From the IMG/VR virus record IMGVR_UViG_3300009431_000005: a stretch of 64,000 bases of DNA; one strand, written 5' to 3'. The notes under the pieces are model-generated. The model was not told the DNA's origin and ran no database searches. It saw only the letters and a list, made by a program, of their open reading frames with translations. Shown piece after piece: positions 779-39,717 of this stretch. A program made the translations under genes and the position numbers. Positions within the stretch are counted from its first letter, which is position 1; each line of letters starts with the position of its first letter. This stretch comes from an uncultured virus (IMG/VR IMGVR_UViG_3300009431_000005). Its lineage: Duplodnaviria > Heunggongvirae > Uroviricota > Caudoviricetes.

Positions 779-1117
779 TCAATGCACCGCCATTCGCTCC
801 TCGCTCACCTCCGGTTCCCAGCCCTCGGCGACGGCCTTCTTGAAGCACTCCCACCCCCCGAGGAGGAAGTCGCGGCAGGCGTGTGGTCGCCGCTCGTAGA
901 TCGTGCAACGCTTCGTCGTTCGGTCGAGCGCGACGCACACGTCGTCGACGCGCTTCATCCGGCCAACGTAGCAGTCGGCCGGGTCGGGCTCCGCCATCGC
1001 AGACGGGTCGGGCAGGATGCGCAGGTCGTCCTCGGTCAGTGGGACGTCCCACCCCTGACAGCACAACGCGCAGTCTTCGCAGCTCTCCTTCCGATCGTTG
1101 ATCTTGTAGACCGGCAT
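779..1117 (-). CDS. YkgJ-family cysteine cluster protein (CxxCxxCC)
   Basis: CEDCALCC...CVALD...CTIYERRPHACRDF; ATG at 1117 overlaps the upstream stop (TGATG). Confidence 0.8.
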   Translation of the reverse strand: MPVYKINDRKESCEDCALCCQGWDVPLTEDDLRILPDPSAMAEPDPADCYVGRMKRVDDVCVALDRTTKRCTIYERRPHACRDFLLGGWECFKKAVAEGWEPEVSEERMAVH

Positions 1118-2049
1118 CAGGTACCGCCCCCTGCGTGCGCGGGCAGGTCGGAGTCGAAGCGCACGCTGGTGGGCACCACGATCGTCGGGCGCTCGGCCGT
1201 TTCGACCTTCAGCGCGTCGATCTGCGCCTTGAGCCACTTCTGGCCGGTCTTGTTTTTGAGCGGGCGGCGCAGGAGCGCGTCTCCTGCGCGAGCAAGCTCG
1301 GGCGCGACGACCTGCTGCCAGTGCGTCGGATCGAGCGGCTCGTCGTTGTCGATGACGACGGTGTTCGCCTTCCCGAACAGCTTGATGTAGCGGGGGAGGT
1401 TCTTCTTCAAGCCGTGGTGCGCCGTCTGGATGTACGACTTGGGCACCTTGCGTCCGCCCGCCTCCGCGCGTGCGAGGTTGCGATCCAGTGCGGTCTGGAG
1501 CTTGGTGACGACGATCACCGCGTACACGTCGTACCCCAACCCGCGCAGAGACTGAACCGGCGTCGACACCCGTGCGAAGTCCCACCCGGTCATGTCGATG
1601 AGCAGGCCACGTCGACGCTTCGCGTGCCAGTCCCGCTCCTTGCGCGCGAGACCTTGCGCCTTCTTGAAGAGGCCGTAGTCGTCGCCGATTCGTGAGAGAG
1701 GCTTCCCGGCCTCCTTGTAGAACCGCTCCAGGTGCTTGTCCTGGTCGATGTGCTTGAGGCCGCGTCCGCCGAACATCTCGCGTCCGATCGACCCCTTGCC
1801 GGAGCCGCCGGAGCCGAGGACGAAGATGGCCTTGAGTGCGTGCGGGTCGTGCTCGATCGACTCGCCGAAGACGTAGCGCAGACCGATCACGCGGTGGTGC
1901 GTCTCGGGGTTGCCAGTCAGCACCGGGTCGAGCCAGAAGCCCTCGGTGTCGAGCATGTCGTCGTGCCCGCCCTCCTGCGGCCAGTCGAGGCGGCAGAGGT
2001 TGGCGGGCTCCGGCAACGCGGCGAAAGACTCAACTAGACGTGCGGTCAC
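1117..2049 (-). CDS. P-loop kinase, zeta-toxin/AAA_33-like
   Basis: KAIFVLGSGGSGKG Walker A, LLIDMTG, ALDRNLAR...GGRKVP lid motif, VVIDND. Confidence 0.75.
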   Translation of the reverse strand: MTARLVESFAALPEPANLCRLDWPQEGGHDDMLDTEGFWLDPVLTGNPETHHRVIGLRYVFGESIEHDPHALKAIFVLGSGGSGKGSIGREMFGGRGLKHIDQDKHLERFYKEAGKPLSRIGDDYGLFKKAQGLARKERDWHAKRRRGLLIDMTGWDFARVSTPVQSLRGLGYDVYAVIVVTKLQTALDRNLARAEAGGRKVPKSYIQTAHHGLKKNLPRYIKLFGKANTVVIDNDEPLDPTHWQQVVAPELARAGDALLRRPLKNKTGQKWLKAQIDALKVETAERPTIVVPTSVRFDSDLPAHAGGGT

Positions 2050-4395: not shown

Positions 4396-7300
4396 TCAGG
4401 CCACGGCGTCCGCGTCAAGGGCCTCCTGGACGCGACCCGCCTGTTCGGCAGGGAGGATGAGTGCGAAGGCGTCGCCTTCGGGCTGTAGCGGAAGGTCATC
4501 GGAGAGCTGCAGCTCGGCAGCGATCCGGACAAGCCGGTCGAGCTTGTCGCGCGGGACGAGGAGAGTCTCGGAGACGTTGCCGCCCCCGCGCTTCACGTCA
4601 CCGTCGTCTGCGGGGGGCTTCGGGGCGTTCTTCGCGCCGCCGACACCCTTCCCTCGATTCAGCGGGGGACCGCCCCCAGGGCCGCCCGACTGGAAGCCGT
4701 GCGGGTCAGGATCCCCGTGTCCTCGAAAGCCACCGGCCGTCGAGGAGGTGGTCCCCTCGTACACGTAGCCGTCGCCGTCCTTCTGGACGCCGCGCTTCTT
4801 CAGGTACCGGAGGACCGTCTTCATCTCCTTCTCGGAGGGGGGCCGACGGGAGACGATCGGGTCCTCGCTGATCCGGGCCATCAGGTCCGGCAGCGTGACG
4901 CGCCGCCCTCGGTGGTCCGAGAACCAGCGCATCGTCGCGCCCTTGATGGGGAGCAGGTCGGTCACCAGTTCGAGTAGCTCGTCCTCGGCAAGCGCGTCGA
5001 GGAACTCGTCGTCGACGAAGTCCTCGAAGGCCACGACCGCCTCGCCGATCTTCTCCTCGGCCTTCGCAGCGGCCTCCTCGGAGTCGTACTGCTTGGCCTT
5101 GGTGATGTCGGTCGTCCAGCCGTCGCCGGTCCAGTAGCGTTTCCCGTCGTCGTGGACGATGACGAACGTGTCCTCCTCGGACTCGCGCAGCTTGCGGAGG
5201 TTCTTCAACGCGGCCATCACGTCGGCGGGGGCCTCGTCGGGCGTAGCGAAGTCGAGCTTCGACCCGAGGCGCTGCTCAACGCTCTTCACCGCGCGCACGA
5301 GTCCGCGCTCGTCCCCCAGGGAAGAGACGCCGACGATCTTCAGCCCGGTCGGGATGTGCGTCACGACCCACGTCCCCTGCCCCCGGTTGTCCATGTGGAT
5401 GCCGAGGAACTCGCCGAAGGTGCGCCCCTGCACCGTCTTCTTCGCCGCGCTGCCCGGCTTCTTGCCCGGCACCGCGATCTTGAAGCGCAGGCTCTTCGAG
5501 CCCTTCCAGTGGACGTGCTGGTACCCCTCGTCGACGGACTCGCCGTAGTCCTCGAAGGACATGCCGGAGTCGAGCTTGCGTACGATGTTCGACTTGGCGG
5601 TGCCGTCGACGTCACGCGGATCGAGCTGCGCCGCGTCGCTGAGGTTGTACCCGTTGAAGGACGCCTTCCTGGACTTGTTCGTCGAGGCGTCGTAGTCGAT
5701 GCCCTTCGCCGTGCCGTTCCGCTGCTTGGCGGTCACGAAGAGGATGTGATCCCAGTCGCCGGGATCACCGCCCCCGGTCGTGCGCACCCCATAGAAGCGG
5801 CCGACCTTCAGCGACTTCGGAGTGAAGCCCTCGTCGAGTTCGTCCTCCGACTCGCGCAGGCGTCGCAGGGAGGGCTTCTCCGCGTCGAACGCGAAGGCCG
5901 TCGGCTTGCCTCGGGCGGGCGCATACTCGACCACGTTCAACGCGCCGTCGAGCCACGCGGGCTTGTGCTTCCCAACGTAGTGCAGCACGTCCTGAGCGGC
6001 GCGCTTGAGCGGCGTCCGCGTCGAGATCGAGAGCGCACCCGTCGCAGCCTGCCCCTTCGGCCAGACCTGCAGCGTGAGACTCTGCGCCTCGTCGAGATCG
6101 TCCTCGTCCTCGGGGATCACGTTGTTGGGGTGCGGGTGCAGGCCGTACGGGTCGTAGTGCGTCGCCTTCGGACCCATGCGGATGACCGTCTCGGTCGGGC
6201 GCACGCGGGAGGGGACGCCGCCGGGCTTGCCGGTCGTCGCCTTGATGAGCTTCGCCGCGCCCTTGGAGGTCTTCTCGTAGACCGCGTCGCGGTTGGGCTT
6301 GGCATAACGATCGCCGACGGCCAGCTCGCCGAACGTCGTGCGCTGCACTTCGTCGACGGACTCGCGTAGCCGCACCCACTCGTCGCACGTCAGCCCGTCG
6401 GGGTCTTTGATCTTCCGCCCCTTGTACTTCCGGCACGAGGCTCCCCGACCGCCCTTCTCGACGAGCGCGTTACACCCGTTGCAAACGCGGTTGCTCTCCT
6501 GCTCCCGAACGGAGGCGTCTCGAAGCGGAGCGAAAGCGGCCTCGTCCAGCTCCTCCTCGGACTCGCCGAGAGCCTTGACGACGTTGTTCGCAAAGCGCAG
6601 GACGGCCTTCGGGAACGGCTCGCTCGGGGGTTTCTTGGTCGTCTCGTGGTGCCACATCACCTCGCCGTGCTTCAGCGAGCCGTAGTAGCTGACCTTCGCC
6701 TTCTCGTCGTCGACGAAGACCACGCCGTTCGAAGTACGCCGCACGGTGAAGCCGGGGAACTTCCTGATCTTGCTCTGAGTGCGGAAGCCAGCCTCGTCGA
6801 CGGACTCGCTCAGGAGTCCCTTCGCGCGCTTCGACACGGCCAGGGGAATGCCCAGCTCCTTCGGGGGCTTCGGCTTGAAGAACGAAGACGGGTACTGCAC
6901 ACCCGGGATACCCCGGCGCGTCCACGTTCCGTCCTCGTAGTACATGAAGAGGCGACCGCCCCCGGGATCGCTCACCTCGACTCGGCGCAGCTTGCGCGTC
7001 GTGTTCAAGTGGCTCCCCGGAGACAGCGTCCGCAGCTTCCACCCACCCCCGGCCGTAGCGACGGCCTCGCGCAGACGGGAGCCGTTGCAGTCGGGGCACA
7101 GGACGAAGTGCCAGCCGTCGTCGGCGGGGTTCGCCTCTTCGGCCATGTGCCACAGCGTGATGAGACGCGGGTCGTCCTCGTCGGGGCCACTGACTCGCGC
7201 GAGCTTCGGATCGTCGCGCTTGTCGCCCTCGGCCATGTACACCGGGACCCAGCCCGTCCCTTCGCAATGGCCGTCGCACATCGTCTCGGGATCGGGGTGC

Positions 7301-10300
7301 GGGATGCCGAGCGCGGTGTAGCGGTCGCTCACCTCGAACTGCGCCTCTTCGAGAGGCACGCCGCGAGCGTCCGCGTACTGCTGCCAGCGGCTCTCGTGCT
7401 TGCGCCGGACCATGTGCTTCCCGGCCTTGCCGAGCAGCTTCGTGATCGCGTTGCGCGACTTCATCACGAGGGCCTCGAAGCCGAAGTGCCAGCGTCCCTT
7501 GATCTTCTCGGCCTGCCGCATCGTGAGCCACTCGGCCCGGGAGTTCTCCCAGTCGAGCTTCGGCACGAATTCGTCCTCCACGACCCCGAGGAAGTTGTGG
7601 TACACGAAGCCGCCGCCGGGCGAGGTGAAGACGAACGCCTTGTGGATCTTGACCGGGCCTCTGTAGCCCAGCTCCTCGATCAGCTCGCGGCGTGCGGCTT
7701 GCATCGGGTCTTCGCCCTTGTCCATCGCACCGCCGAAGAGGCCCCAGGTGTTCGGCTCGTTCACCGCGCGGGATCGCTTGCCGAGCAGGAAGCGCCCCGT
7801 CTTCGGGCAGATCGGGAGGATGCCCGCACCCGCAGCGCCCCAGAACTTCTCCCCAGAGGGGTTCGTATGCAGCGCGGCCTTGCCGGAGCCGATCTCCTTC
7901 CCAAGCTCCGGGTCCACCTCGCAGAGTCCGAACAGCTCGCAGTACGCGGGGACCTCGTCGTCCGCGATCTCCACGATCACGACCTCGATCTCGTCCTCGT
8001 CGTCGGACGTTGGCAGGCTGCCACTGTCCTCGGCCTCGTACCGCTTCAGTAGCGCCTTGACGCGCTTCCGGTCGTTCGGGTCGATCTTGGCCCACGCCTT
8101 CTCGGCGGCGCTCTCCTTGCCGTCCTTGTGCAGCCGCACGGCGTCCTGCACGGCCCGCTTGAGGCCCACGGCGAGCTTGCCGAGCACGCCTCCCGGGGCC
8201 ACCGAGCCGAGCGCCCCGAGCGCGACGATCACGTCCTCGTCGAGCGCCACCTCGTCGAGCATGTCGGCAGCCGCGTCGATCAGCTCCTCGACGGGCGTGC
8301 GCGTCTCCATCATGTACGCGCGCTTGCGCTCGTCGTACTTGATCTTGCCTGCGTTGGCGAGGCGGGCCAGGGAAGCCATCACGCCCGCGACCGAGCGCAG
8401 GCCGAGACCTCGCTGCACGTCCTTCGGCTTGAGGTAGCGGCCCTTGTTCTGCGTGAGGAAGTCCGCAACGGCGAACAGCGTGTCGCCCTTGAGCGCGGTC
8501 GACGAGGAGCTGCGACGGCCCATGCGCGCGTCGGTCTTGCCGGAGTCGGTGTAGTAGGTGAACTCGACACCGCGACCACCCGTGCCGGACACGATGGAGA
8601 CGGCGCGGTTGCGCGCGTCCCAGCGTGCGACGTACCCGCTCGTCGCCGTGCGGCCGACGGTGCCCTGCGTGCGCAGCCACTTATCGAAGGCGGCTGCGGC
8701 GTCCTTGCGGAAGGGCGCGGGGACTCGGCCCTTGTCGAACGCCGTGTCGAGCGGGGTCTCACGGCCCGCACCCTTCAGGCGCAGCGACGAGTCGCCGGGG
8801 AGCTTCAGCACCTTCGGCGGTTGGTAGCCCTCGACGAGTTTCGCGCGCCACTTCCCGGCCTTCACCTGCTTGATGAACTTGTCCACCGGGCCACGGTTCA
8901 CGTACCCGCTGCGGACCGCGTTCCAGACGACGCCGTCGATCTCCTTGAAGTCGCCCACGGTGCCGGGGATCGTCGGGCGCGCGATGAGCTTGCCCTTCTC
9001 CCACTGCTTGTCCGTAGGGGCGGCCTCTTCGACGGGCTCGCCGATCGACTCGGCCACGCCGTACTGACTGGCGACGCCGATGAACTCGTGCGCGGCGTCC
9101 ACGGTCGAGAAGTCGATGCAAGCGCGATGCGGAGGGAACGCCTCGACGTGCTCCACGCCGTCAGCGTCGCGTGCGAGGTGCAGCACGTCGTCGAGATCGC
9201 TCTCGCAGCGCATCCACACCCTCACGAGCGTCTCCTCGGATTCGTGGACGACGACGCCCCCACTCTTGCCCGTGCTGTAGCGTCCCATGAGTCCATCCTT
9301 GTCCGGCTTCTGGTACTGGAGGCCCAGTACCCCCATCAGCTTCTTCTGCATTGACTTGCTGCGGGGGTCCTTGGCCGGGATGACGCGCGCCGTCCCGTCC
9401 TTGCGAACCTCGACGCCGTACTCACCGACGGCCGCTTTGATCTCGGCGTCGCGCGCCTGGATCCGCTGCACCGCCTTGCTCTTCTCCGGCTCGGTCTCCG
9501 GAGGCGCAGGCGTCGTGGTCGTGACCTCCTTCCCGGCTCCGGTGGGCTTGACGGTCGTAGCCGCCCCCTTCCCGAGCTTCGAGAGGTCCATCGTCTTGAC
9601 GCCCTTCGTGTCCACACCCTTGTCCTTGGGCTTGGCCTTCTTCTTCGAGGGCTTCACGTCGTCGGCGGTCGCCTTGCCCGAGAGCACGTCGCGCAGGAAG
9701 TCGAAGACCTCCACGGAGATGCGCTCGCCCGGCCCGTACATCGCGTAGCCGATGCACTCCGCCCACCACTCCTCGACCTTCGTCGCGCCGTACGTGGTCG
9801 GGGTGGTCTTCGCAGCCTTGGCCGCCTTCTTGTCGGGGGCCACGTTGGCATTGAAGTACGCGGTGACCGCTGCGCGCTGCGCGCCCGACAGGACGGAGTA
9901 CCAGATCGTGTGCCCGTACTCGTGGACCATCGTGTGCGGAGAGCGCGGGGCCTTCCACGCGGCGAACTTGCTCGTAGCGACCGGCGAAGGCACGCGGTTG
10001 AGGTACACGACGGTCGACCCCTTCCACATCCACCCGCTCGGGCCGCTCTTGCTGCCACCTCCCAGGCCGCCCTTCGGAGCGCGGCTCATCACGAGCGCAC
10101 CCTCCAGGCTGGGGAGCTTCAGCGCGTTCATCGCCTTGTCGATCTTCTTCAGGAAGTGGCGCAGATCGAAGTCGTCGATGACCGGGTCCGGGTGCAGCTT
10201 GCCGTCGTCGTAGTCGCTCCTCGGATAGACCCACCCCGGCTTGGCCTTGCCGTTCTTCATCGGCAGGGCGCTGTACGCGGTGAAGCGTCCGATCCGAGGC

Positions 10301-11100
10301 GTGACCTGGACGATCTGGTCCTTCTTGTTGCGGGCGGAGACGGCGGACTTCGACACGGACTCGGCAAGCGCGTCCTCCACACCCCACTCGCAGTCAGCTC
10401 CGTAGCCGTCGAGGGGTGCCGCGTCGTCGAGGTCGTCGAACTCCTCGAAGTGCAGGGAGCCGAGCGCGGCAACGTCCTCGGTCGCACCCTTGAGCCCCAT
10501 CATCGTCTTGAAGATGGCGATCTTGAGCGCATACCAGCGGTCGCTCTCCTCGGGCACGTCCGGGTACTGGTCGGACACGCGCGCACCTGCACGCTTGTAT
10601 CGGGAGTACGCCTTCTGCACCGAGACGCCCGTCTTCTTGGCCCACGCCTTCACCACGGCGGGCATCGGCTTCTCTTCGAGCGTCGCCTCGGTCACGCCGT
10701 CGAGGAACTCGAAGACCTCCGCGATCTCTGCGTCGAACATGCCGCCCTCACCCTCCGAAGCCGTGCCCGGTGCCTTGCGTAGCCCGGCCTTCTTACGCTG
10801 CGCAGCTCGCGCCTCCCGGTCCTGCGTCGGGCCGTACTGACGATCCCCGAGCTTCACGCCGTACGTGCCGTTGCGAATCGCAGCGGTGAGCCCCGTCCAC
10901 TTCATCGAACGCGGACCCTGACGCTTCGCCCCGTCCTTGATGGCCCACTCCGACTGGCTGAGCTTCACGTTCCCGGCGTCGAGGTCCCGCCCCGTGATCG
11001 TCCACCACTGGTTGCGGATCAGGACGGACTTCCCCGGCACGAGGTACTGCCGTAGCAGCTTCTCGGACGGGCCGGATTCGTGCAAGTCGTGGACGGGCAT
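4396..11100 (-). CDS. 2234 aa modular polyprotein (zincin HExxH, winged-HTH, Nudix, Zn fingers, many small unknown modules), putative capsid-internal protein
   Basis: Long ORF with genome-typical codon use; HEYGH...EEWWAE; Nudix box GGAMDKGEDPMQAARRELIEELG; repeated ESVDE/ESEDELDE linkers. Confidence 0.85.
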   Translation of the reverse strand: MPVHDLHESGPSEKLLRQYLVPGKSVLIRNQWWTITGRDLDAGNVKLSQSEWAIKDGAKRQGPRSMKWTGLTAAIRNGTYGVKLGDRQYGPTQDREARAAQRKKAGLRKAPGTASEGEGGMFDAEIAEVFEFLDGVTEATLEEKPMPAVVKAWAKKTGVSVQKAYSRYKRAGARVSDQYPDVPEESDRWYALKIAIFKTMMGLKGATEDVAALGSLHFEEFDDLDDAAPLDGYGADCEWGVEDALAESVSKSAVSARNKKDQIVQVTPRIGRFTAYSALPMKNGKAKPGWVYPRSDYDDGKLHPDPVIDDFDLRHFLKKIDKAMNALKLPSLEGALVMSRAPKGGLGGGSKSGPSGWMWKGSTVVYLNRVPSPVATSKFAAWKAPRSPHTMVHEYGHTIWYSVLSGAQRAAVTAYFNANVAPDKKAAKAAKTTPTTYGATKVEEWWAECIGYAMYGPGERISVEVFDFLRDVLSGKATADDVKPSKKKAKPKDKGVDTKGVKTMDLSKLGKGAATTVKPTGAGKEVTTTTPAPPETEPEKSKAVQRIQARDAEIKAAVGEYGVEVRKDGTARVIPAKDPRSKSMQKKLMGVLGLQYQKPDKDGLMGRYSTGKSGGVVVHESEETLVRVWMRCESDLDDVLHLARDADGVEHVEAFPPHRACIDFSTVDAAHEFIGVASQYGVAESIGEPVEEAAPTDKQWEKGKLIARPTIPGTVGDFKEIDGVVWNAVRSGYVNRGPVDKFIKQVKAGKWRAKLVEGYQPPKVLKLPGDSSLRLKGAGRETPLDTAFDKGRVPAPFRKDAAAAFDKWLRTQGTVGRTATSGYVARWDARNRAVSIVSGTGGRGVEFTYYTDSGKTDARMGRRSSSSTALKGDTLFAVADFLTQNKGRYLKPKDVQRGLGLRSVAGVMASLARLANAGKIKYDERKRAYMMETRTPVEELIDAAADMLDEVALDEDVIVALGALGSVAPGGVLGKLAVGLKRAVQDAVRLHKDGKESAAEKAWAKIDPNDRKRVKALLKRYEAEDSGSLPTSDDEDEIEVVIVEIADDEVPAYCELFGLCEVDPELGKEIGSGKAALHTNPSGEKFWGAAGAGILPICPKTGRFLLGKRSRAVNEPNTWGLFGGAMDKGEDPMQAARRELIEELGYRGPVKIHKAFVFTSPGGGFVYHNFLGVVEDEFVPKLDWENSRAEWLTMRQAEKIKGRWHFGFEALVMKSRNAITKLLGKAGKHMVRRKHESRWQQYADARGVPLEEAQFEVSDRYTALGIPHPDPETMCDGHCEGTGWVPVYMAEGDKRDDPKLARVSGPDEDDPRLITLWHMAEEANPADDGWHFVLCPDCNGSRLREAVATAGGGWKLRTLSPGSHLNTTRKLRRVEVSDPGGGRLFMYYEDGTWTRRGIPGVQYPSSFFKPKPPKELGIPLAVSKRAKGLLSESVDEAGFRTQSKIRKFPGFTVRRTSNGVVFVDDEKAKVSYYGSLKHGEVMWHHETTKKPPSEPFPKAVLRFANNVVKALGESEEELDEAAFAPLRDASVREQESNRVCNGCNALVEKGGRGASCRKYKGRKIKDPDGLTCDEWVRLRESVDEVQRTTFGELAVGDRYAKPNRDAVYEKTSKGAAKLIKATTGKPGGVPSRVRPTETVIRMGPKATHYDPYGLHPHPNNVIPEDEDDLDEAQSLTLQVWPKGQAATGALSISTRTPLKRAAQDVLHYVGKHKPAWLDGALNVVEYAPARGKPTAFAFDAEKPSLRRLRESEDELDEGFTPKSLKVGRFYGVRTTGGGDPGDWDHILFVTAKQRNGTAKGIDYDASTNKSRKASFNGYNLSDAAQLDPRDVDGTAKSNIVRKLDSGMSFEDYGESVDEGYQHVHWKGSKSLRFKIAVPGKKPGSAAKKTVQGRTFGEFLGIHMDNRGQGTWVVTHIPTGLKIVGVSSLGDERGLVRAVKSVEQRLGSKLDFATPDEAPADVMAALKNLRKLRESEEDTFVIVHDDGKRYWTGDGWTTDITKAKQYDSEEAAAKAEEKIGEAVVAFEDFVDDEFLDALAEDELLELVTDLLPIKGATMRWFSDHRGRRVTLPDLMARISEDPIVSRRPPSEKEMKTVLRYLKKRGVQKDGDGYVYEGTTSSTAGGFRGHGDPDPHGFQSGGPGGGPPLNRGKGVGGAKNAPKPPADDGDVKRGGGNVSETLLVPRDKLDRLVRIAAELQLSDDLPLQPEGDAFALILPAEQAGRVQEALDADAVA
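8008..8026. repeat. dispersed palindrome, copy 1 of 5
   Basis: CGTTGGCAGGCTGCCACTG. Confidence 0.85.
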
Positions 11101-11103
11101 GGG

Positions 11104-11352
11104 TCAGTCTTTGAGTACTTCCGTACTCTTCGCACCCCACTTCTTTGCGAGCGCCTTGAGCTTTGCCAGGGCGGTCTTCGCGTCTGGCTTGTGAGGCTCA
11201 CCCGCTGTCTGGCTGCCCATCCGCATCGAAGAGGACCCTTTGCCCACAGTGATGACCGCGTGCGTACTCGCCTCGTCCACGTTGCGCATGACGTCGGTGA
11301 CAGAGAGAGCGCCCTCAACGAGTAGCGACTGTTTGTTGTGCGGTGCCTTCAT
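11104..11352 (-). CDS. small basic protein with conserved leader, putative internal head protein
   Basis: Leader LLVEGALSVTDVMRNVDEA; C-terminus (ALAKLKALAKKWGAKSTEV) resembles its two neighbours. Confidence 0.7.
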   Translation of the reverse strand: MKAPHNKQSLLVEGALSVTDVMRNVDEASTHAVITVGKGSSSMRMGSQTAGEPHKPDAKTALAKLKALAKKWGAKSTEVLKD

Positions 11353-11360
11353 GATTCGTC

Positions 11361-11648
11361 TCAGGGTTGGGTGTAGAGGATTCGTTTCCCGTCGGCTTTC
11401 GCCTTCGCCTGGGCCTGCTTCTTCGCATCAGCGTACGACATCTGACCCTTGATGAAGAAGGGCTTCCCGCCCTGGCTGTAGGCGAAGGCCCAAGAGCCCG
11501 CCCCCTTGGGCTCCTTGCCGTGCGACGCCACGTACGCGCTCGTGTTCACGAGGACCTGAGCCTCGTCGACGTTCTGCATGGCGTCCCCGATGGAGAGCGC
11601 ACTCTCCACGAGCCTCCGAGTCGTCGGAGTGTCCTTCATCCTGGTCAT
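11361..11648 (-). CDS. small basic protein with conserved leader, paralog of 11651..11911
   Basis: Leader RLVESALSIGDAMQNVDEA; mature part YVASHGKEPKGAGSWAF...FIKGQMSYADAKKQA. Confidence 0.75.
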   Translation of the reverse strand: MTRMKDTPTTRRLVESALSIGDAMQNVDEAQVLVNTSAYVASHGKEPKGAGSWAFAYSQGGKPFFIKGQMSYADAKKQAQAKAKADGKRILYTQP

Positions 11649-11650
11649 GG

Positions 11651-11911
11651 TCAGCTCTCGACGTACACGGTGCTCGCGCCCGCCTTCCGCGCACGCTTGA
11701 CGGCTTCCTTCTTCGCGGCCCCGTACTTGCCCTGGATGAAGACGGGGGCCGTCTCCTTCCCGGCGATCACGAACACGAAGGCCCAGCGTCCGTCACCCTT
11801 CGGGGACTTCCCGTGCGCCGCGATGTAGCGGGAGTCCCGTACGTCGACGGCCTCGTCGGTGCGATGCACCGCGAGGGCTCCTTCGGCCAGCGTCTCTAGT
11901 CTGTGCGGCAT
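11651..11911 (-). CDS. small basic protein with conserved leader, paralog of 11361..11648
   Basis: Leader TLAEGALAVHRTDEA; mature part YIAAHGKSPKGDGRWAF...FIQGKYGAAKKEA. Confidence 0.75.
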   Translation of the reverse strand: MPHRLETLAEGALAVHRTDEAVDVRDSRYIAAHGKSPKGDGRWAFVFVIAGKETAPVFIQGKYGAAKKEAVKRARKAGASTVYVES

Positions 11912-12010
11912 GAGCCACCTCGGGTCAGTGCAGGGCGAGAGTGGGAGGAACCCCCGCCCTGCGTCCGCATCGAATTGTCACCACAGCTTCGCAGCGGGAG
12001 CGGGAGGGTC

Positions 12011-14803
12011 CTACTCCTCGTCGCCCCCGTCCTGCTCGGATTCCAGCGCCGCGATCTCGTCCTCGATGGACTCGTTGGCGCTGTAGCCCTTGCCCTTCGC
12101 GTACTTGAGCGTGCCCTTGTTCACGAGGCGAGACAGGACCTTCATCATCTGCGCGTCGGTCGCGCCCTTCGCGCCGGTGTACCCGGCCGCCGCCATCGAC
12201 TTCTTGAGCGAGCCGAAGGTCGTCGACTTGCCCATCGTCTGCGCGAAGTACCCGAGGCAGGCGGAGATCAGCGCGGTGTCCGCACCCTTGCCGCCCTTCG
12301 CGGCCGTGGCAAGCGCGCCGCTCGCCCCGCCCTTCTTCTCGTCGAGAATGTCGAGCTGCTCGCCGGTCTCGTCCGGCTCCTCGCTGGTCCGGAGCTGCCG
12401 ACGGCGGGCCTTGTACTTCTTGGCGTAGCGGCGGGCCTGCGCCTTGGCCTTGCCGGTCTTCCGACGGCGTGCGGCCTTGCGTGCGGCCTTGCGCTCCTCG
12501 GGCGTCCGCTTCTTGGCGTTGCGCGCCCGCGCCTTCACGGCCCCACGGCTCATCCGCTTGATGGCCTCCAGGACCTCGTCGCCCAGGGAAGCGCCGATCA
12601 GCTCCGCGCGCCGGAGCGCGTTCTCGAAGTCGCACTCCTCGACGGCGGAGTCGAACGCGCGGATGTCGGCGAGGTGCTCGTTCGCACTCGCGCCCAGCAC
12701 GTCGCTCAGGAGGGAGGCGATCGCGTCGAGCGTGTCGTCCTCCAGCTCACCGATCGCGGCGGCGAGGGCTTCCTCGTCGTCCTCGTCGATGCCGGGGAAC
12801 TCGATCTCCTCTTCGTAGCCCAGCTCCTCGGCCTGCTCTTGCACGAGCACGGTCGCGGCGCGGACTTCCTCGGGAGCCTCGGTGTCGCAGTCCAGTTCGA
12901 TCAGAGCGTCGCCCTCGGCGTCGCCAGCGCGCAGCTCGATCTTGCCTTCGCCGAGCGTGAGCACGGCTTCGTCGATGACGGTCATGGAATCATCCTCCGG
13001 TTCGTGGGATTCGAGCGCGGCCTTCACCTTGCTCGTGAACTTCCTGTCCTTCTTGAGACCTGCGACGAGGACATCCTGCGCCGCTTTGTTCGCTTGCATC
13101 CAGAGCGGGCTGTTCCGGACCCACTTCATCACGCGCGTCCACGTCTGAGCGGGGATCGTGTCCCCGGGCTGCGTGATTCCAGTGAGGCGGAGCAAGTCCG
13201 GGACGTTGAACTCGAACTCGAAGTCGTCGCGGCCCTCGCAGATCCGTAGCGCGACCCCCTCGTCCGGCTCGCAGGATTCGAGTGCGTCGCTCACCATGCG
13301 AGCGAGCGCCCGGTCCTTCTTGACCTCTCTGACGAGCGCGGACTGCGTCGACTTGTTCACCTTCCACCAGTACGGCTGGTCGCTGATGTGACGCGCGATG
13401 TCCGTCCACGCGCCGCTCGCCATCTGCTGACCCTTCGTCGCCAACCCGGCCGCGAGGAGCAGGTCGCCGACGTTGAAGAACATCTGCATGTCCCCGTAGT
13501 CCTCGTCCAGCGTCGCGGTACCGTCGTCGGCTTCATACAGGCTCGGGTCCTTGCGGAACGCGGCGACCTCCTTCGCGGCGGTCTTATCGAGGTGCGGCGT
13601 GGTGAGGGCCTTCTTCGCCACCTCCGCAGGAGAACCCGTCTTCGCCAGCGCCCCCACGCGGTCCACCATGTAGCGGCCCAGCTTGGAGTCGAGCACGGCG
13701 CGGATCTCGTCGGGCGTGTACCCCTTGGACTTCCACCGCTTCTGGAGCGCCTTGAAGACGGCCTCCCAGTACGGCTCCACGTCCTCGGTACCCTGCGCGT
13801 TCATCTGGGTGTACAGCGACCCGAAGAAGCCGTACCCCTCGTTCTTGGTCTTGGGCACACGCGCTTCGTCGACGGACTCACGATAGCCGCGCGGGTTGCG
13901 GATGTTGTCCTTGCCGCAGTTGCCGCAGTACGCCTTCTTCGGGTTCTCCGTGTCCTTGCCGAGATTGTCGCCGCAGTTGGGGCAGCGCAGGTCGGTGCCT
14001 TCGTCGATCGGGTCGTCGACGGACTCCTCGTACCCCATCATCCCGTAGTACACGCTGTCGGGAATCTCGTCGCGGGCAGCGGTGTCCATGCTGGACGCGA
14101 GCTTGCGGGCCTCCTTGATCTTGCCCACCTTCAGGAGACGGAGGAGCTTCTCGTAGTCCTTGAGGTCGCCCGCGTACATCTTCTTCATGCCCGTGTCGCG
14201 CTCGTCGGCGACCAGCTTCTTGTACCGAGCGATCAGGTCTCCCATCGCCTTGACACCCGACGACCCGAGACGCTGCGAAGCCTCGTGGATGGCCTCGCCC
14301 AAGTGCTTCGCCACGAGGGCCAGGGCAGCCTTCATGTCGTTGGCCTTGCCGATGCGTCCGCCGACCGCGCGGCCCGTCTTGTCCTTGCCGACGCTCTCGA
14401 TGCGGAAGCCGGAGCCGTCGGGGCTGATGAGTGCGACGCCCTTCCCCCTGTAGCGGACGAGGTGTTGCTTCGGGGAACTCGGGTGCGGCTTCGCTTCGAG
14501 GTCGGAGACCTTCACCGCTTCGTCGAGATCGTCGCCGGGCGGGTCGTTCTCCAGGTCGCCCTCCTTGTGCTCGACGATCCGCACGCCGCCCTCGTCCTCG
14601 AACAGCACCGCGTGGTCTTCCCCGACCACGAGGAAGCCCTCGTCGACGGAGTACAGCTCCAGCGGTTCCTCACCGTAGTCGGCGAGCACAACTCTGCCGC
14701 TCTCGCGTGCGAGCAAGGCCGGAGTCTCGTCGTCCTCCAGCATTGCTCCCATGTCGATCGCTTCCAGCACAGTCACGCCGAAGAAGTCTGCTACTCGGGT
14801 CAT
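12011..14803 (-). CDS. 930 aa modular polyprotein, putative prohead core/internal protein
   Basis: Alternating acidic and basic blocks; linkers LDEA, LGEAIHEA, ESVDDPIDEG, RESVDEA, ALES; Zn ribbon CPNC...CGNC; GAGGA upstream of ATG. Confidence 0.85.
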   Translation of the reverse strand: MTRVADFFGVTVLEAIDMGAMLEDDETPALLARESGRVVLADYGEEPLELYSVDEGFLVVGEDHAVLFEDEGGVRIVEHKEGDLENDPPGDDLDEAVKVSDLEAKPHPSSPKQHLVRYRGKGVALISPDGSGFRIESVGKDKTGRAVGGRIGKANDMKAALALVAKHLGEAIHEASQRLGSSGVKAMGDLIARYKKLVADERDTGMKKMYAGDLKDYEKLLRLLKVGKIKEARKLASSMDTAARDEIPDSVYYGMMGYEESVDDPIDEGTDLRCPNCGDNLGKDTENPKKAYCGNCGKDNIRNPRGYRESVDEARVPKTKNEGYGFFGSLYTQMNAQGTEDVEPYWEAVFKALQKRWKSKGYTPDEIRAVLDSKLGRYMVDRVGALAKTGSPAEVAKKALTTPHLDKTAAKEVAAFRKDPSLYEADDGTATLDEDYGDMQMFFNVGDLLLAAGLATKGQQMASGAWTDIARHISDQPYWWKVNKSTQSALVREVKKDRALARMVSDALESCEPDEGVALRICEGRDDFEFEFNVPDLLRLTGITQPGDTIPAQTWTRVMKWVRNSPLWMQANKAAQDVLVAGLKKDRKFTSKVKAALESHEPEDDSMTVIDEAVLTLGEGKIELRAGDAEGDALIELDCDTEAPEEVRAATVLVQEQAEELGYEEEIEFPGIDEDDEEALAAAIGELEDDTLDAIASLLSDVLGASANEHLADIRAFDSAVEECDFENALRRAELIGASLGDEVLEAIKRMSRGAVKARARNAKKRTPEERKAARKAARRRKTGKAKAQARRYAKKYKARRRQLRTSEEPDETGEQLDILDEKKGGASGALATAAKGGKGADTALISACLGYFAQTMGKSTTFGSLKKSMAAAGYTGAKGATDAQMMKVLSRLVNKGTLKYAKGKGYSANESIEDEIAALESEQDGGDEE

Positions 14804-21574: not shown

Positions 21575-21633
21575 GATCGACCCCGTATGGAGCCTCGATC
21601 ATAGCCAGCCCCGAGCGTCGAGGCTAGAGCGAG

Positions 21634-22233
21634 TCAAGGCAGCTCGATCCGCGACTGTCCAGGCGGGGGGTCGGGGAGCTTCGCACCGGGCGGCGGCACG
21701 ACGATGCCGGGCTCCTGCGCTTGCCGCACCTGATCCTCCAGTTGCCGCGCGTGGATCTCGCCGTACTTCCGCGCGCACTCCTCCCACTTCTCGAACGCCT
21801 CGTCCAGCGTCGTCGCACCCTCGATCGGGAAGCGGTACGGAGCCTTCGCCGCGCCCTGGAAGAAAGCCGCGAGGTGCGGCGGGATGTTGACGGTGTGACG
21901 GCTCACGTAGCGGGAGAAGTTCCCAGGAGCCTCGCCCTTCACGACCTCACGCTCGGCGACCAGTCGGCCGAAGTTGTCCGCGTACTCGGTCGTCGTGAAG
22001 ATGAACTCCGACGGGGGAACAGGGCCGCCCGGTCCGGGCGGCGGTGTCGCCCCGGACGCGCGGGCAGCGACAGCCGCCTCTTGACGTCGGATCTGCGCCT
22101 GGATCTCCGGCGGGTGCTCCGCCATCGCGGGGATCGGGGGACCATCACGTCCGTCGCTCAGGCGGAAGTCGCGCCCGCCCTCTTCGTTCTCCACACCCTC
22201 GATCGGGTTGGTCTCACCGTTCTCATTCACCAT
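21634..22233 (-). CDS. hypothetical protein
   Basis: 199 aa ORF with AGGAGG SD. Confidence 0.65.
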   Translation of the reverse strand: MVNENGETNPIEGVENEEGGRDFRLSDGRDGPPIPAMAEHPPEIQAQIRRQEAAVAARASGATPPPGPGGPVPPSEFIFTTTEYADNFGRLVAEREVVKGEAPGNFSRYVSRHTVNIPPHLAAFFQGAAKAPYRFPIEGATTLDEAFEKWEECARKYGEIHARQLEDQVRQAQEPGIVVPPPGAKLPDPPPGQSRIELP

Positions 22234-34200: not shown

Positions 34201-34316
34201 CGAATCACTCCTGAAAGACGCCTCCGGGGCGGAGGCGAGCTGGGAAACGGTACAGCGACCCCCCAGGAGTGCCAGCCCTTTGTCCGATTTTCCCCGGCCC
34301 GGCGGGCGGGTCCGAG

Positions 34317-35770: not shown

Positions 35771-37567
35771 TCAGCCCTCGGCCAGCTCGACCTCTCGTCC
35801 GTCTCCGGCCTCCCGCAGAGCCTCCAGGTCCTCGTGTAGCTGCTTCACCACGGCGTTGTCCTCGACACCGTCGGAGATCGTGATGCCGTTCGAGACCGGC
35901 GGGAGCAGAGACGGATCGGTCTGCCGGAGTCCCGCAGTCATCGGGTCGGGTTCTGCGCCGTACTCGGCCCAGCTCGCAATGCTGCGCCGGAGCATCGGGG
36001 AGTCGTGGACGCACTTCGCAATCGCAAGCTGCTCGTCCTCGGAGAGCGACACGTACCCGAGCCGCGCCTTGCCGTCGTTGTCGAGGATCGCGTCCCGGGT
36101 CTCCGCGTCCTGCGCCTCGAACCCCACGCCTCCGCCGGTCGCCACCTGATCGGGCGTCTTCTTGATGAGCTTGAGCACGAGGTCCTCGGGGAGCTTCGCG
36201 TAGTTGAGCAGCACGTACGTCGCCCACACGCGCGGGTCGAGCTGCATGTCCTGCGCGAGACGGCTCATCGCCTCGACGATCTGGTACCGGAGCTGGATCA
36301 GCTCCAGCCGCTCGAACTCGTCCAGGTACGAGATCGGCGACATCTGCACCATGTATGCGTTCTCGGCGAGCGTCGGGTCAAACTCGTTCTTCCCTGCGCC
36401 CGGCTTCTGGAGCAGCACGTAGTGAACGTCGCAGAGCTGCCGCAGGCCGAAGATCGCCGCGCGCTGGATGCGCTTGCACGTCCGCGCGAAGCGCACGTCC
36501 TGCTGCATCAGCGTCGCCTTCGCGTTGATGTCGCCCTCGAACCCGAAGTACGCCTTCGGCACCTTGGCCGAGCCGAAGAACTCGTCGCGGAAGTGGTCGA
36601 GGTCGTACACCTCGCCGATCGTCCCCGAACCCGCCAGCAACTCGACGCGCGATTCGCGCCCCTCGATGAGCGGCACGAAGATGTCCTCCAGCGGCGTCAG
36701 CGGGTTGTACTGCTTCTTGTACTCGGGCGTCGCGGGGTCGACCAGCTCGTGCTTGCGGAACCGCTTTCTCCAGCGGTTCACAAAGGCCATCGCCTCGTGC
36801 TCCTCCATATTCCCGACGTTGACCATGATGAGGTTCCGGTCGGGGACGCGGCGTAGGCGGTACATCAGGATCGACTCCTCGGTCAGAGTCATCCGTCGCC
36901 ACGAGCGGAAGAGGCCGTCCAGGAGCGAGGTGCCGTACGTGCTCTCCTCACGCTTGCCGAGCAGCCGGAAGTGGATGAAGTCCCACGGCCACGAGACGTC
37001 ACGCTTGCCCGCGCGGAACTTCGTCTTCTCCTGCTTGAAGCCGACGAGCCGCTGGTACTTGTCCTCCTCGCGCGAGACCGCGAGCGTCGGGGAGAAGCGC
37101 CAGCCCAGCACGCCCTTCTCGGTCGCATAGAGCAGTCGCTGGAAGGCGTCGCCGTACTTGAGCATTCGGCGGACGATGGCAGCGATGCGGTCCTCGACCT
37201 GACAGTTGCGGAAGCACTCCTCGCCCGCGCGCACCATCGCGGCGTTCTTCGACTCGACCCACGCCGACACGCCTCGGTCGTAGTCGCGCTGCGTGCTCTC
37301 CTCCGCGTACACGTCGAGGATCCCGGACACGAGGCCGTACGTGTCCATCTCGTCGTAGATTTCGTACCGACGCCTGCGGTCGGCCGCGAGCGTGAAGAGA
37401 CGCTCGTACGCAGACTCCGCCAACGCTCGTGAGGTCTGATCCTCCGCGTCGAGGTCGTCGAAGTACGTCGCCATCGGCCTGGACTGCCGGTCGTACAGGC
37501 CGAGCAGATTCCAGTACCACGGCGTCCGATGGGGCTGCCCTCTGAGCGGTCGATCGGTTTCAGGCAT
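35771..37567 (-). CDS. portal protein, T4 gp20-like
   Basis: YDEMD...LDVYAEEST, YGTSLLD, LTEESILMYRLRRVPDR, EDIFVP, FFGSAKVPKAY, QDVRFARTCKRIQ. Confidence 0.9.
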   Translation of the reverse strand: MPETDRPLRGQPHRTPWYWNLLGLYDRQSRPMATYFDDLDAEDQTSRALAESAYERLFTLAADRRRRYEIYDEMDTYGLVSGILDVYAEESTQRDYDRGVSAWVESKNAAMVRAGEECFRNCQVEDRIAAIVRRMLKYGDAFQRLLYATEKGVLGWRFSPTLAVSREEDKYQRLVGFKQEKTKFRAGKRDVSWPWDFIHFRLLGKREESTYGTSLLDGLFRSWRRMTLTEESILMYRLRRVPDRNLIMVNVGNMEEHEAMAFVNRWRKRFRKHELVDPATPEYKKQYNPLTPLEDIFVPLIEGRESRVELLAGSGTIGEVYDLDHFRDEFFGSAKVPKAYFGFEGDINAKATLMQQDVRFARTCKRIQRAAIFGLRQLCDVHYVLLQKPGAGKNEFDPTLAENAYMVQMSPISYLDEFERLELIQLRYQIVEAMSRLAQDMQLDPRVWATYVLLNYAKLPEDLVLKLIKKTPDQVATGGGVGFEAQDAETRDAILDNDGKARLGYVSLSEDEQLAIAKCVHDSPMLRRSIASWAEYGAEPDPMTAGLRQTDPSLLPPVSNGITISDGVEDNAVVKQLHEDLEALREAGDGREVELAEG

Positions 37568-37605: not shown

Positions 37606-39717
37606 TCACGGCTGGAGGTTCCTGCGAAGCGCCTCCCACTTCGGCCCCTTGCGGCCGACCCGTCGTGTATCCGATTGTCGCACCTGCGAGGGTGCCACGG
37701 CAACCGTCTCCCGGTCCACAGAGCCGGGTCTCCCATTCTGACCGTTCCTCCGCACGGCGACCATCTCGGCCACGTCCTCCATGTCGAAGTCCGGGAGCGT
37801 CGGCACCGACGCGGCGCGCGGATCGTTCGTGAGATGCCAGACGACTCCGGCCACCGCGTCGCTCACGTCCTTGGACCCATTGCCTCCCTTCGACGAGCGC
37901 GTGGGGTGGTCGACCTTGCGCTTCTTGATGTCCCGCTCCAAGTCGAGGACCTCGTCGATGAACGGCGGGTACTCGTAGTAGGAGATCCGCCGGTCGAACA
38001 TCGCCGAGCGCAGGGAGAGGTACGCCTCGTCGTCCCGGTCGACGGAGAGCTTCCCGGCCTCGATGTTGAAGCGTCGGAGGATCTGGATGGAGTCGGCGGA
38101 CTGGAAGCCGTCGAACGTCACCCGCTCGACGTGAAAGAGTTTGGAGAGGAAGACCACGAAGGCGCGCATCTTCGCCAGCTCCACCTCTTCCCCCGGCGGC
38201 GGCACCACCCGAGCCATCAGGTCGATAATGGCGAAGGGGTTGGAGACCTCGGACTCCGTGCCGTCCGGGTTCACGCGGCGGTTCCGCACCATCCCCGCGA
38301 CGTGCCCCATTGCGAAGCCGAGGGCGTCGCCGGTCAGGCCGATGTCGACGTGGATGAAGCGCGGGCAGTTCGGATTGAGTAGCGGGACCCACTTCGACCG
38401 CCGCGTCCGACACACCTCTCGGACGTCGAAATAGTCGTCGAGGCGGATATCGTCGTCGCACGAGATGGTCAGCGCCTCGCGGTTGAACGGGTGCTGCATC
38501 TTCGGGTGGATGCCGTCGAACACCGACTGCCGATCGCGGACGAGCGGTGAGAGGTTGAAGGTCGCCACGCCCGCGATGTCGCGCAGGGCTTGGTCGATGT
38601 CCTCCGTGAAGGGCTTACGGAACTCGCCCGGCACCTCGACGATCTTCGCGTGCTTCCGGCACCGCTCCCCGTCCTTGAGCAGACGCGATCGGCTGATGCG
38701 GTCGCCCACCTCCACGCGGAACGTCGGGAGCGTAAACTTCTTCTTCGACTTCACCTCCCACAGCGCGTAGTCGGAGATGTGCGTCGAGGCGTTGCCCTTC
38801 ACCTTGCGGAGATGCTCCTCCAGGAAGGAGGTCTGAGCGTTCCGCGAGGAGAGCAGCATCATGATCCCCGGGAGGCTGCCGCCCGGTCGGATGAAGCGAG
38901 ACTGCAAGCGCGTGTACGTCGCGTTGTAGAGGTCGTACGCCTGACCCGTCTGGACACCCGCCTCTCGGTTGTCCTTCACGCGCATGAAGTTGACCTCGTC
39001 CATCAGGAACGAGAACAGGTCGAGTCCGAGAGCGTGCAGCTCCTGCGAACCCGGGATCACCATGAACTTGCGTCCCGTCGATCGCTCGAAGTCGATCTTG
39101 CTGTCGATCTTCGTCGAGCGCGGGAACTCCTGGCGGAAGTACGGGCTGGAGTCGAGGAAACCCCGGAGCTTGTAGTAGCCCGCGTCCGCAACCTGCCGCT
39201 TGGTGATCGAGTACACCCCGAAGACGATCAGCGACCCAGGGAGCAGTCCATAATAGGCCGAGGCGTCGCGCAGACACGAGAGATAGTACAGCTTGTACGC
39301 GAGGCCGACGCAGGCGAGCGTCGTCTTGCCGATGCCGATCGCGCCGGTCATCACCCACTCAAAGACCGACGAGCCCGGGGCGAAGACGTAGTACAGGTCC
39401 TCCTTCCACGCCGGGTGCAGCTCGCTGGCCGCGCGTCCGAGGTAGTAGTCGTCGTGGATGAACTCCTCGATGCCGACCGGCTTCGTGTGGAAGTCCGCCT
39501 CCCACAGCACGTCATGGATCGCGCTCCACCCTTCGTCGTCGACGATCGCCTCCGAGAGCCAGCGGATGACCAGCTCGCGCTCGTACGGAGTCAGCCGGTC
39601 GAAGAGGTTGCGATCCTGATGCAGCACCTCCTCCGCAACGCGCTCGAAGAGTCCGACCTGCTCGGACCCCTGCACACTGGATGGCTTCAGGATCTTACCG
39701 CGCCCGGCCATTGCCAC
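37606..39717 (-). CDS. terL: terminase large subunit
   Basis: TGAIGIGKT Walker A, FLMDEVNF Walker B, nuclease HVDIGLTGD, VTFDGFQS, KVDHP...SKDVSDAVAG; directly upstream of portal. Confidence 0.9.
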   Translation of the reverse strand: MAMAGRGKILKPSSVQGSEQVGLFERVAEEVLHQDRNLFDRLTPYERELVIRWLSEAIVDDEGWSAIHDVLWEADFHTKPVGIEEFIHDDYYLGRAASELHPAWKEDLYYVFAPGSSVFEWVMTGAIGIGKTTLACVGLAYKLYYLSCLRDASAYYGLLPGSLIVFGVYSITKRQVADAGYYKLRGFLDSSPYFRQEFPRSTKIDSKIDFERSTGRKFMVIPGSQELHALGLDLFSFLMDEVNFMRVKDNREAGVQTGQAYDLYNATYTRLQSRFIRPGGSLPGIMMLLSSRNAQTSFLEEHLRKVKGNASTHISDYALWEVKSKKKFTLPTFRVEVGDRISRSRLLKDGERCRKHAKIVEVPGEFRKPFTEDIDQALRDIAGVATFNLSPLVRDRQSVFDGIHPKMQHPFNREALTISCDDDIRLDDYFDVREVCRTRRSKWVPLLNPNCPRFIHVDIGLTGDALGFAMGHVAGMVRNRRVNPDGTESEVSNPFAIIDLMARVVPPPGEEVELAKMRAFVVFLSKLFHVERVTFDGFQSADSIQILRRFNIEAGKLSVDRDDEAYLSLRSAMFDRRISYYEYPPFIDEVLDLERDIKKRKVDHPTRSSKGGNGSKDVSDAVAGVVWHLTNDPRAASVPTLPDFDMEDVAEMVAVRRNGQNGRPGSVDRETVAVAPSQVRQSDTRRVGRKGPKWEALRRNLQP

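Follow-up and report, generated by a model that had tools for sequence, protein, structure and literature searches.

Background

In bacteriophage T4, a 10-residue capsid-targeting sequence (CTS) loads internal proteins, and the protease gp21 cuts after Glu at L/I-x-E, with processing of the CTS depending on its positions 8 and 10 and prevented by Asp at position 10 (excerpts of PMC9026906). The T-even phages' internal proteins are diverse defence-countering proteins that have the CTS alone in common (excerpt of PMC3012670). Polyvalent proteins, in turn, were predicted by Iyer, Burroughs, Anand, de Souza and Aravind (2017) to travel with the DNA and to be freed by proteolysis, and the analogy with the polyproteins of RNA viruses was drawn (excerpts of PMC5512222). 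Here we describe a gene, P0001, in a 64 kb stretch of DNA from an uncultured Caudoviricetes virus (IMG/VR record IMGVR_UViG_3300009431_000005; this stretch, about half of a 126 kb contig, is called the window below). Its 2234-residue product is a chain of unrelated modules separated by stereotyped linkers, a design that would combine the two described ideas, T4 internal proteins and polyvalent proteins. Judging from the sequence, we lean towards the view that P0001 is a head-loaded polyprotein and that a gp21-type protease, the gene of which is located in another part of the genome, cuts it after Glu.

Like the T4 proteins IPI, IPII, IPIII and Alt and the multiply cut core proteins gp22, gp67 and gp68, P0001 starts with a short peptide that ends in L/I-x-E. 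Further points of likeness to the T4 internal proteins are the predicted cuts after Glu before a small residue, the basic cargo, the T4-type portal encoded in the same genome, and the diversity of the cargo, which has only the targeting and cleavage signal in common. However, in T4 each cargo has its own gene and its own CTS, whereas about 17 cargos are fused in one gene here, and, in contrast to the three-residue rule of T4, the internal joints are longer, a near-invariant ES-[VIL]-[DE]-E. Furthermore, unlike in T4, no gene for a gp21-type protease was found within the window plus 6.4 kb.

With polyvalent proteins, P0001 shares the combination of numerous unrelated domains (about 17 modules, without internal repeats) in a single giant polypeptide of a phage. 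Nevertheless, P0001 has no match to the MPTase-PolyVal or HINT peptidases (Pfam, E<=0.1), the signature LPD, methylase, ParB and ART domains are unmatched in P0001 and in 19 relatives (Pfam, E<=1e-4 for the relatives), and an embedded peptidase occurs in just one of the 21 family proteins checked. The stereotyped joint is also no part of the description of polyvalent proteins in the main text of PMC5512222, where the word "linker" does not occur. The ejection or inner-body proteins of phiKZ, 201phi2-1 and SPN3US (prohead proteases gp175 and gp245, motif S/A/G-x-E) are likewise cut after Glu, several of them at multiple sites. In SPN3US, the propeptide of gp53 and gp54 contains the sequence ARESVE, which was taken as two adjacent sites (excerpt of PMC5694885), and this ARE-SVE double site resembles LRE-SVDE of P0001. 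In contrast to P0001, the phiKZ-type proteins lose propeptides or give few pieces, and they form no chains of unrelated, independently folding modules that are swapped between phages. MARTX toxins contain arrays of effector domains that are released by an in-built cysteine protease domain at Leu-specific inter-domain sites. Their likeness to P0001 is one of design only (one delivery vehicle, exchangeable modules, release by linker cutting), and, unlike these secreted bacterial toxins, P0001 has no such embedded protease domain by Pfam. Full-text literature searches, thin on subscription journals, yielded no description of linker-joined head polyproteins.

Unrelated modules and stereotyped linkers in P0001

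An earlier note on this DNA had described P0001 as beads on a string, with small, unrelated, mostly basic modules bounded by acidic linkers that look like sites of the prohead protease type. All 15 linkers listed there were recovered at their places when the coordinates were translated (Table 1), and the beads-on-a-string anatomy is supported. The modules are mutually unrelated, given that a search of P0001 against itself by BLAST at E<=10 gave zero off-diagonal matches. Compared with 2000 composition-preserving shuffles of the protein, the hydrophobic-x-Glu motifs are far above expectation: [LIV]xES was observed 9 times (1.53+-1.21 expected), [LIV]DE[AGV] 7 times (0.56+-0.74) and [LIV]xE[AGS] 22 times (6.96+-2.59), and in each case 0 of the 2000 shuffles reached the observed number. 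At the sequence level, these linkers agree with the L/I-x-E rule of T4 gp21, as given in the excerpts of PMC9026906.

Cutting after Glu at hydrophobic-x-E-[SAG] would result in about 17 pieces, two of them large (373 and 495 aa) and the others between 39 and 130 aa. Within residues 1346-1973, most of the pieces are basic (pI 8.2-10.5; the piece 1581-1671 has a pI of 5.9), and the spacers between them are acidic and consist of 4-7 residues (SVDE, SEEELDE, SEDELDE). The mostly basic character claimed for the modules is thus found in most of this region but not in the Cys-rich module 1253-1345 or the pieces after residue 1974, which are acidic.

The linker in a family of mosaic giant proteins

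Residues 1245-2234 of P0001 served as the query of an exhaustive phmmer search, which yielded 296 proteins at E<=0.001. Among 41 retained proteins of at least 700 aa, which include P0001 and two neighbouring gene products, P0002 and P0003, at least three loose linkers (E[SG][VILF][DEAGQ]E) were found in 18, one in six, and none in 17. The strict core, ES[VIL][DE]E, was counted in a set of 19 linker-bearing proteins (33,711 aa; the near-duplicate P0009 was excluded, and an open reading frame (ORF) from locus L003 was added). It occurs 99 times in this set, against 0.29+-0.59 expected and a maximum of 5 in 300 shuffles, a count that is partly circular because the proteins were picked for having at least three loose linkers, although the excess is several hundred-fold despite this. 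The residue after the core is Ala at 47, Gly at 16 and Ser at 13 of the 99 sites (76 of 99 together), the eight residues before it show no conservation, and the median spacing between linkers is 137 aa. The consensus of the family linker is E-S-(V/I/L)-(D/E)-E followed by A/G/S, often preceded in P0001 by a hydrophobic-x-E-S site. The earlier note held that most linkers contain two sites. This applies to P0001 alone, because the residues before E-S are not conserved in the relatives, where only the second site ([VIL]-[DE]-E, then A/G/S) is family-wide.

Outside this family, little resembles P0001. A nucleotide search of GenBank phages with the gene gave no match, and tblastn of the protein against the same phages gave 95 records that matched only the NUDIX part, 4-7% of the query among the matches listed. 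A word-index protein search with full-length P0001 retrieved P0001 itself only. Scans of IMG/VR with P0001, P0056, P0005, P0007 and the alignment A1 returned only the phage's own 48 kb record or nothing, and a scan of GTDB genomes with A1 returned nothing. Within the family, the NUDIX domain was detected by Pfam (E<=1e-4) in three of 19 relatives, with weak or marginal hits in three and nothing in the other 13.

Comparison of module order among the relatives places blocks of P0001 at other positions in P0004, P0005, P0017, P0019, P0056, P0090 and P0104. For example, residues 3-118 match P0056 1758-1872, residues 621-695 match P0004 89-159, and residues 1580-1668 match both P0056 1141-1228 and P0017 85-167, while 1748-1860 matches eight proteins and 1854-1970 matches twelve. 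Comparison of 21 family proteins gave 743 high-scoring segment pairs, and 23.7% of their ends are no more than 8 aa away from a linker, compared with 7.7% under random placement (maximum 9.6% in 200 trials), and 19.9% of the pairs span a linker, compared with 36.6% at random. As judged from these alignments, the modules of the family are exchanged at linkers. The N-terminal module of P0001 is internal in P0056, where it is preceded by ESLDE, with L-D-E aligned residue by residue to L-H-E of MPVHDLHE. In addition, 71 stand-alone proteins of at most 140 aa cover the Cys module. When projected onto P0001, they begin at residue 1250 and finish at residue 1347 (medians), next to the predicted cuts after E1252 and E1345. 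A likeness of the C-terminal module to P0005, P0026 and P0056, noticed by eye, was unsupported by BLAST, in which the sole hit was the C-terminus of P0133 (E 0.005, small database). Among the loci of the relatives, L003 encodes a 2793-aa ORF with 10 linkers that adjoins a 1103-aa ORF with 4 linkers, and L004, a 129 kb contig, carries P0008.

Neighbouring polyproteins and N-terminal peptides

Two more genes of the window, P0002 and P0003, are built like P0001, judging by their linkers and modules, and might likewise be read as head-cargo polyproteins. P0002 has modules in common with P0017, P0092, P0004, P0026 and P0104, and residues 43-287 of P0003 match the N-terminal region of P0090 and that of the giant ORF of L003. 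Of the three small genes just upstream of P0001, two have a second site, NVDE↓A (here and below, the arrow marks the predicted cut). The N-terminal peptides of the 82- and 95-aa genes look alike.

The hydrophobic-x-E-[SAG] pattern extends over the surrounding genes. In the 18 genes at 1.1-22.2 kb of the window, it occurs at 12.2 sites per 1000 aa (80 sites against 35.3+-6.0 expected); in the 16 genes at 22.2-40.4 kb, at 6.7 per 1000 aa; and in 19 replication genes, at 5.6 per 1000 aa (37 sites against 33.6+-5.6 expected). A site that ends within the first 16 residues is present in 8 of 18, 1 of 16 and 0 of 19 of these genes, respectively, two of the eight resting on uncertain GTG starts of the longest ORF. 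Besides MPVHDLHE↓S of P0001, there are six nearby genes with ATG starts and N-terminal sites at residues 7-15, such as MPVILKE↓A, MPHRLETLAE↓G and MTRVADFFGVTVLE↓A. These peptides resemble the 10-residue CTS of T4 and may have a targeting role. The pattern across the genes at 1.1-22.2 kb looks like a protease substrate set. The 345-aa gene directly downstream of P0001 belongs to no family detectable by Pfam or PHROGs, and the ESM Atlas gave no usable match for its product. The P-loop kinase gene further downstream has a possible N-terminal LVE↓S site, with an uncertain start (GTG, longest ORF).

Candidate protease

As the earlier note had observed, the window encodes a gp20-like portal, which is confirmed by a match to Pfam Portal_T4, and the gene of the head protease is absent from it by PHROGs, Pfam and tblastn searches. 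The hunt for protease and capsid genes comprised PHROGs and Pfam searches of sets of 36, 30 and 24 ORFs and a search of record G001 with PF03420, all of them negative. When the protease and capsid proteins of the related genome G002 and of Maribacter phage Molly were compared by tblastn with the window and with loci L002-L004, the best E-values were 0.025 to 3.

Such a protease is nevertheless encoded by both of the nearest complete genomes examined, G002 and Maribacter phage Molly_1, which are distant relatives. The IMG/VR record G002 (241 kb, complete, with terminal repeats) has in common with the window the terminase (34% identity, E 3e-105), the portal (31%, E 1e-64) and six replication or recombination genes. 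It contains a Peptidase_S77 (gp21-type) domain above the Pfam cut-off (E 2.9e-13). The domain is N-terminal in an ORF of 536 aa that probably fuses protease and scaffold, and a candidate capsid gene of 508 aa follows (34684-37860 of contig C1). These two genes are about 135 kb from those of the terminase and portal. In Maribacter phage Molly_1, the terminase of which is 33% identical to that of the window, a "prohead core scaffolding protein and protease" is annotated next to the capsid gene.

Modelled on T4, the pathway might be as follows. The precursor would enter the assembling prohead, perhaps via its short N-terminal peptide. A gp21-type (MEROPS S77) serine protease, encoded outside the window, would then cut after the Glu of each (V/I/L)-x-E, which would free about 17 proteins along with small acidic spacer peptides, and the freed proteins would remain associated with the DNA and accompany it into the host. 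We infer the cut, the identity of the cutting enzyme, packaging and ejection by analogy.

Several observations weigh against this interpretation. Neither a head protease nor a major capsid gene was found in the window or in the 6.4 kb that G001/L002 adds before its start, so that the cutting enzyme is putative for this genome. The 369 ORFs of G002 contain just 2 strict linkers and include no giant protein rich in them, so that G002 shows no co-occurrence of S77 with a true polyprotein. The 17 of the 41 large proteins that lack loose linkers have only the widespread Cys module in common, and the choice of the 19-protein set makes the count of strict linkers partly circular. The neighbourhood of P0001 is mixed (ThyX, methyltransferases, the Ro60-like protein) rather than a clean head module. 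Finally, a zincin, with its P1' preference, would also be suited by the conserved V/I/L after the linker Ser, and one that is conserved is embedded in P0001.

Alternative explanations

This zincin, overlooked in the earlier note, is a rival candidate for the processing enzyme. The main rival to cutting by an S77 protease, which we consider rather unlikely, is that P0001 is a self-processing polyvalent protein in which the embedded HExxH zincin (about residues 249-480) is the linker-cutting enzyme, acting in cis on P0001 and in trans on P0002, P0003 and other substrates. Conservation of the module is strong, with HEY[AG]H and E-x-WAE unchanged in five of five sequences, and an x-E-S border flanks the module on both sides in all four homologues. 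It also occurs in other polyproteins of the family, such as P0154, where it is joined with the C-terminal module of the P0008 clade, so a second polyprotein of a phage could carry it; and polyvalent proteins were predicted to be cut by an embedded peptidase, MPTase (Iyer et al. 2017, excerpts of PMC5512222). The structure model of the module is of middling quality (mean pLDDT 60.2). By VIA it resembles M34-type zincin endopeptidases weakly, namely the catalytic domain of lethal factor (Z 6.0, 149 aligned, rmsd 4.3) and PPEP-3 (Z 5.8, 154 aligned, rmsd 3.9), both below the reliability line of Z 8, and Foldseek gave a best match at E 0.23 and none at E<=0.001. Moreover, neither the module nor its four homologues match Pfam MPTase-PolyVal at E<=5. 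HExxH was found in P0001 only among the 21 family proteins checked, and the zincin module is missing from the 20 kb loci around two relatives with 10 linkers each, and it is on these grounds that an enzyme acting in trans is favoured. The zincin also leaves the N-terminal hydrophobic-x-Glu peptides of the neighbouring genes unexplained, and it could equally be cargo aimed at host proteins. Peptidases recur among the modules of this family, given that P0153, a metagenomic relative that carries the zincin module, has a C-terminal Peptidase_C39 domain (residues 519-604, Pfam E 1.8e-7) and that P0156 has two HExxH modules.

Other explanations dispense with the cut or with the prohead. It is improbable that P0001 acts whole, as an uncut giant multidomain protein in which the linker is a spacer, a docking site or a phospho-acceptor Ser in an acidic context (S-x-x-E). 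There is a precedent in the virion RNA polymerase of N4 (vRNAP), a polyvalent protein that is packaged unprocessed (excerpts of PMC5512222), and the L/I-x-E rule does not need the invariant Ser of the linker. However, a five-residue motif kept at 99 joints exceeds what a flexible spacer needs, the stand-alone versions and free reordering of the modules show that they work separately, and hydrophobic-x-Glu is also found at N-termini, where a spacer has no role. We give still less credence to a cytoplasmic polyprotein that is never packaged but is cut in the infected cell by a phage or host protease, in the manner of RNA-virus polyproteins. This would fit the metabolic and DNA-modification genes nearby and the absence of adjacent head genes. 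Yet both the CTS-like N-terminal peptides and the agreement with the gp21 rule speak for the prohead, and in L003 the polyprotein genes are located just upstream of a collagen-like tail-fibre gene (about 1.9 kb away). In addition, because a phage can express separate genes, the fusion seems hard to explain without a shared delivery step.

It is very improbable that the linker is mainly a recombination joint at the DNA level, with a conserved word of 15-17 nt serving as microhomology for cassette swaps and the peptide a by-product. The modules are exchanged exactly at linkers, as this explanation implies, and 19 of 19 strict linkers (4396-14803, L003, L004) use a TCN codon for their Ser despite AGY making up 30-38% of the Ser codons of those genes. 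As a result, every strict linker spells GAGTC, a GANTC site; across the window, GANTC is not notably enriched (236 against about 196 expected). The synonymous codon variation at Glu, Asp, Ser and Ala across 19 linkers, together with the interchange of V, I and L, argues instead that selection acts on the linker peptide. The exact 17-mer was found in 45 single-match stretches of IMG/VR, mostly in an unrelated recurring gene, and, besides the phage's own record, in only one family relative (L027 in G002). A recombination joint may also coexist with cleavage rather than replace it.

Identity of the modules

By sequence, a NUDIX hydrolase, the zincin peptidase and a DnaJ-type zinc-finger protein are predicted among the modules of P0001, together with some twelve others of unknown function, several being basic. 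The effector role given to the modules in the earlier note is putative: recognisable activities are limited to the NUDIX hydrolase and the zincin. Pfam (E<=0.1) and PHROGs searches of P0001 detected no family other than NUDIX, and PADLOC on the three polyproteins gave matches in the NUDIX region only. The Cys module was modelled alone with a pLDDT of 90.9, and a fold search of the Protein Data Bank (PDB) gave no match at E<=0.001, only weak rows for the zinc fingers of DnaJ, BSD2 and UvrA. For the GYQHVHW module, the ESM Atlas gave only leads below 0.9, to small viral hypothetical proteins. The idea that this module, with its invariant H, S, H, H and D, is itself the protease was dropped, as it was without any supporting match.

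The module at residues 934-1020 is in common with P0056 226-305 and P0004 871-950, where an ESVDEA linker precedes it; a likeness to the C-terminal parts of P0005 and P0026 was noticed by eye. Its transmembrane-like stretch is odd for a capsid-internal protein.

Genomic context

The G+C content of the window is 64-68% throughout, and the minus strand carries almost all of its plausible genes. The third-position GC (GC3) of P0001, 0.91, is like that of the neighbouring genes. The portal and terminase genes adjoin, and a Ro60/TROVE-like gene lies on the stretch from the portal to the polyprotein cluster. Scans of the window for Rfam families, including Y-RNA-like ones, and for tRNAs were negative. 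Genes for ParB-like proteins and DNA methyltransferases, in part fused, are found at 1-732, 25162-25971 and 50335-51570 of the window and at 20369-21625 and 24160-25662 of L002, and the window and the relative L004 each have a ParB-methyltransferase pair downstream of their giant gene. ThyX, a nucleoside 2-deoxyribosyltransferase-like protein and a RusA-like resolvase are encoded at 22223-23407, 46110-46502 and 40976-41578, respectively; the first two hint at nucleotide or DNA modification.

Table 1. Genes, modules and linkers of the 64 kb window (positions counted from its first letter; residue numbers refer to P0001)
Feature	Position	Strand	Remarks
P-loop kinase, Zeta-toxin/AAA_33-like	1117-2049	-	Pfam E 2e-11
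345-aa gene, directly downstream of P0001	3301..4338	-	N-terminus MPVILKE↓A; GC3 0.94, the highest of the window
P0001, giant mosaic polyprotein gene, 2234 aa	4396..11100	-	ATG start; modules in common with metagenomic relatives
Linker LRESEED	5170..5190	-	
GYQHVHW module, residues 1859-1973	5182..5526	-	most widely shared module of the family (12 relatives)
Linker YGESVDEG	5524..5547	-	family consensus; E-G before YQHVH invariant in 7/7 aligned homologues
Linker LRESEDELDEG	5827..5859	-	
Linker IPEDEDDLDEA	6085..6117	-	
Linker LRESVDEV	6346..6369	-	
Linker LGESEEELDEA	6538..6570	-	
Linker LSESVDEA	6790..6813	-	family consensus
Linker RLREA	7063..7077	-	
Cys-rich CxxCxGxG zinc-finger module, residues 1253-1345	7066..7344	-	widespread as stand-alone gene and within giant proteins
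Linker PLEEA	7342..7356	-	
NUDIX hydrolase module, residues 1090-1200	7501..7833	-	Pfam PF00293 E 1.7e-16; phrog_1198; PDB NUDIX chains
Module with hydrophobic, transmembrane-like stretch VIVALGALGSVAPGGVLGKLAVGL, residues 934-1020	8041..8301	-	
Linker LVEG	8827..8838	-	
Linker VAESIGEPVEEA	9022..9057	-	
Linker VHES	9238..9249	-	downstream border of zincin module
Zincin module, residues 249-620	9241..10356	-	HEYGH and downstream EEWWAE, Lys-rich disordered stretch, then small alpha/beta domain
Linker LAES	10357..10368	-	upstream border of zincin module; x-E-S border at same place in 4/4 homologues
Linker VTEATLEE	10672..10695	-	
N-terminal octapeptide MPVHDLHE	11077..11100	-	candidate capsid-targeting peptide or propeptide ending L-x-E
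Three small genes, 82, 95 and 86 aa, just upstream of P0001	11104..11911	-	N-terminal peptide ends in L-x-E before S or G in all three
P0002, second polyprotein, 930 aa	12011..14803	-	YRESVDEA, YEESVDDPIDEG, DDLDEA, YSVDEG; N-terminal MTRVADFFGVTVLE↓A
P0003, third polyprotein-like gene, 973 aa	18653..21574	-	5 [LIV]xES sites; N-terminal FFRE↓G and SVDE↓A
Ro60/TROVE-like protein with vWA domain	32599-34674	-	Pfam vWA_Ro60 E 8e-10, TROVE E 4e-5; phrog_850
T4 gp20-type portal	35771..37567	-	Pfam PF07230 (Portal_T4) E 4.1e-42; phrog_213
Large terminase	37606..39717	-	34% identity to that of G002, 33% to that of Maribacter phage Molly/Colly

Implications

Tentatively, and with less confidence than we place in the reading of P0001 itself, we propose that these proteins represent an undescribed, widespread delivery design of uncultured T4-related phages. 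A single head-loading signal would carry a reshuffled magazine of 10-20 small proteins, which the head protease would separate at the joint E-S-(V/I/L)-D-E↓A, also the seam at which modules are swapped, and the cargo would be a large reservoir, almost entirely uncharacterised, of proteins that act early and probably counter defences. Provided that the cuts are real, a single gene brings an entire protein set into the virion, and "giant hypothetical proteins" of phages would have to be annotated as strings of separate products, for which the conserved linker offers a simple sequence rule to split such genes into working units. Foreign proteins could also be packaged with the linker as a transferable cut site, in the way the CTS of T4 is already used. 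Given that nearly all the modules are of unknown function, they form a well-delimited set to search for new host-takeover or anti-defence proteins.

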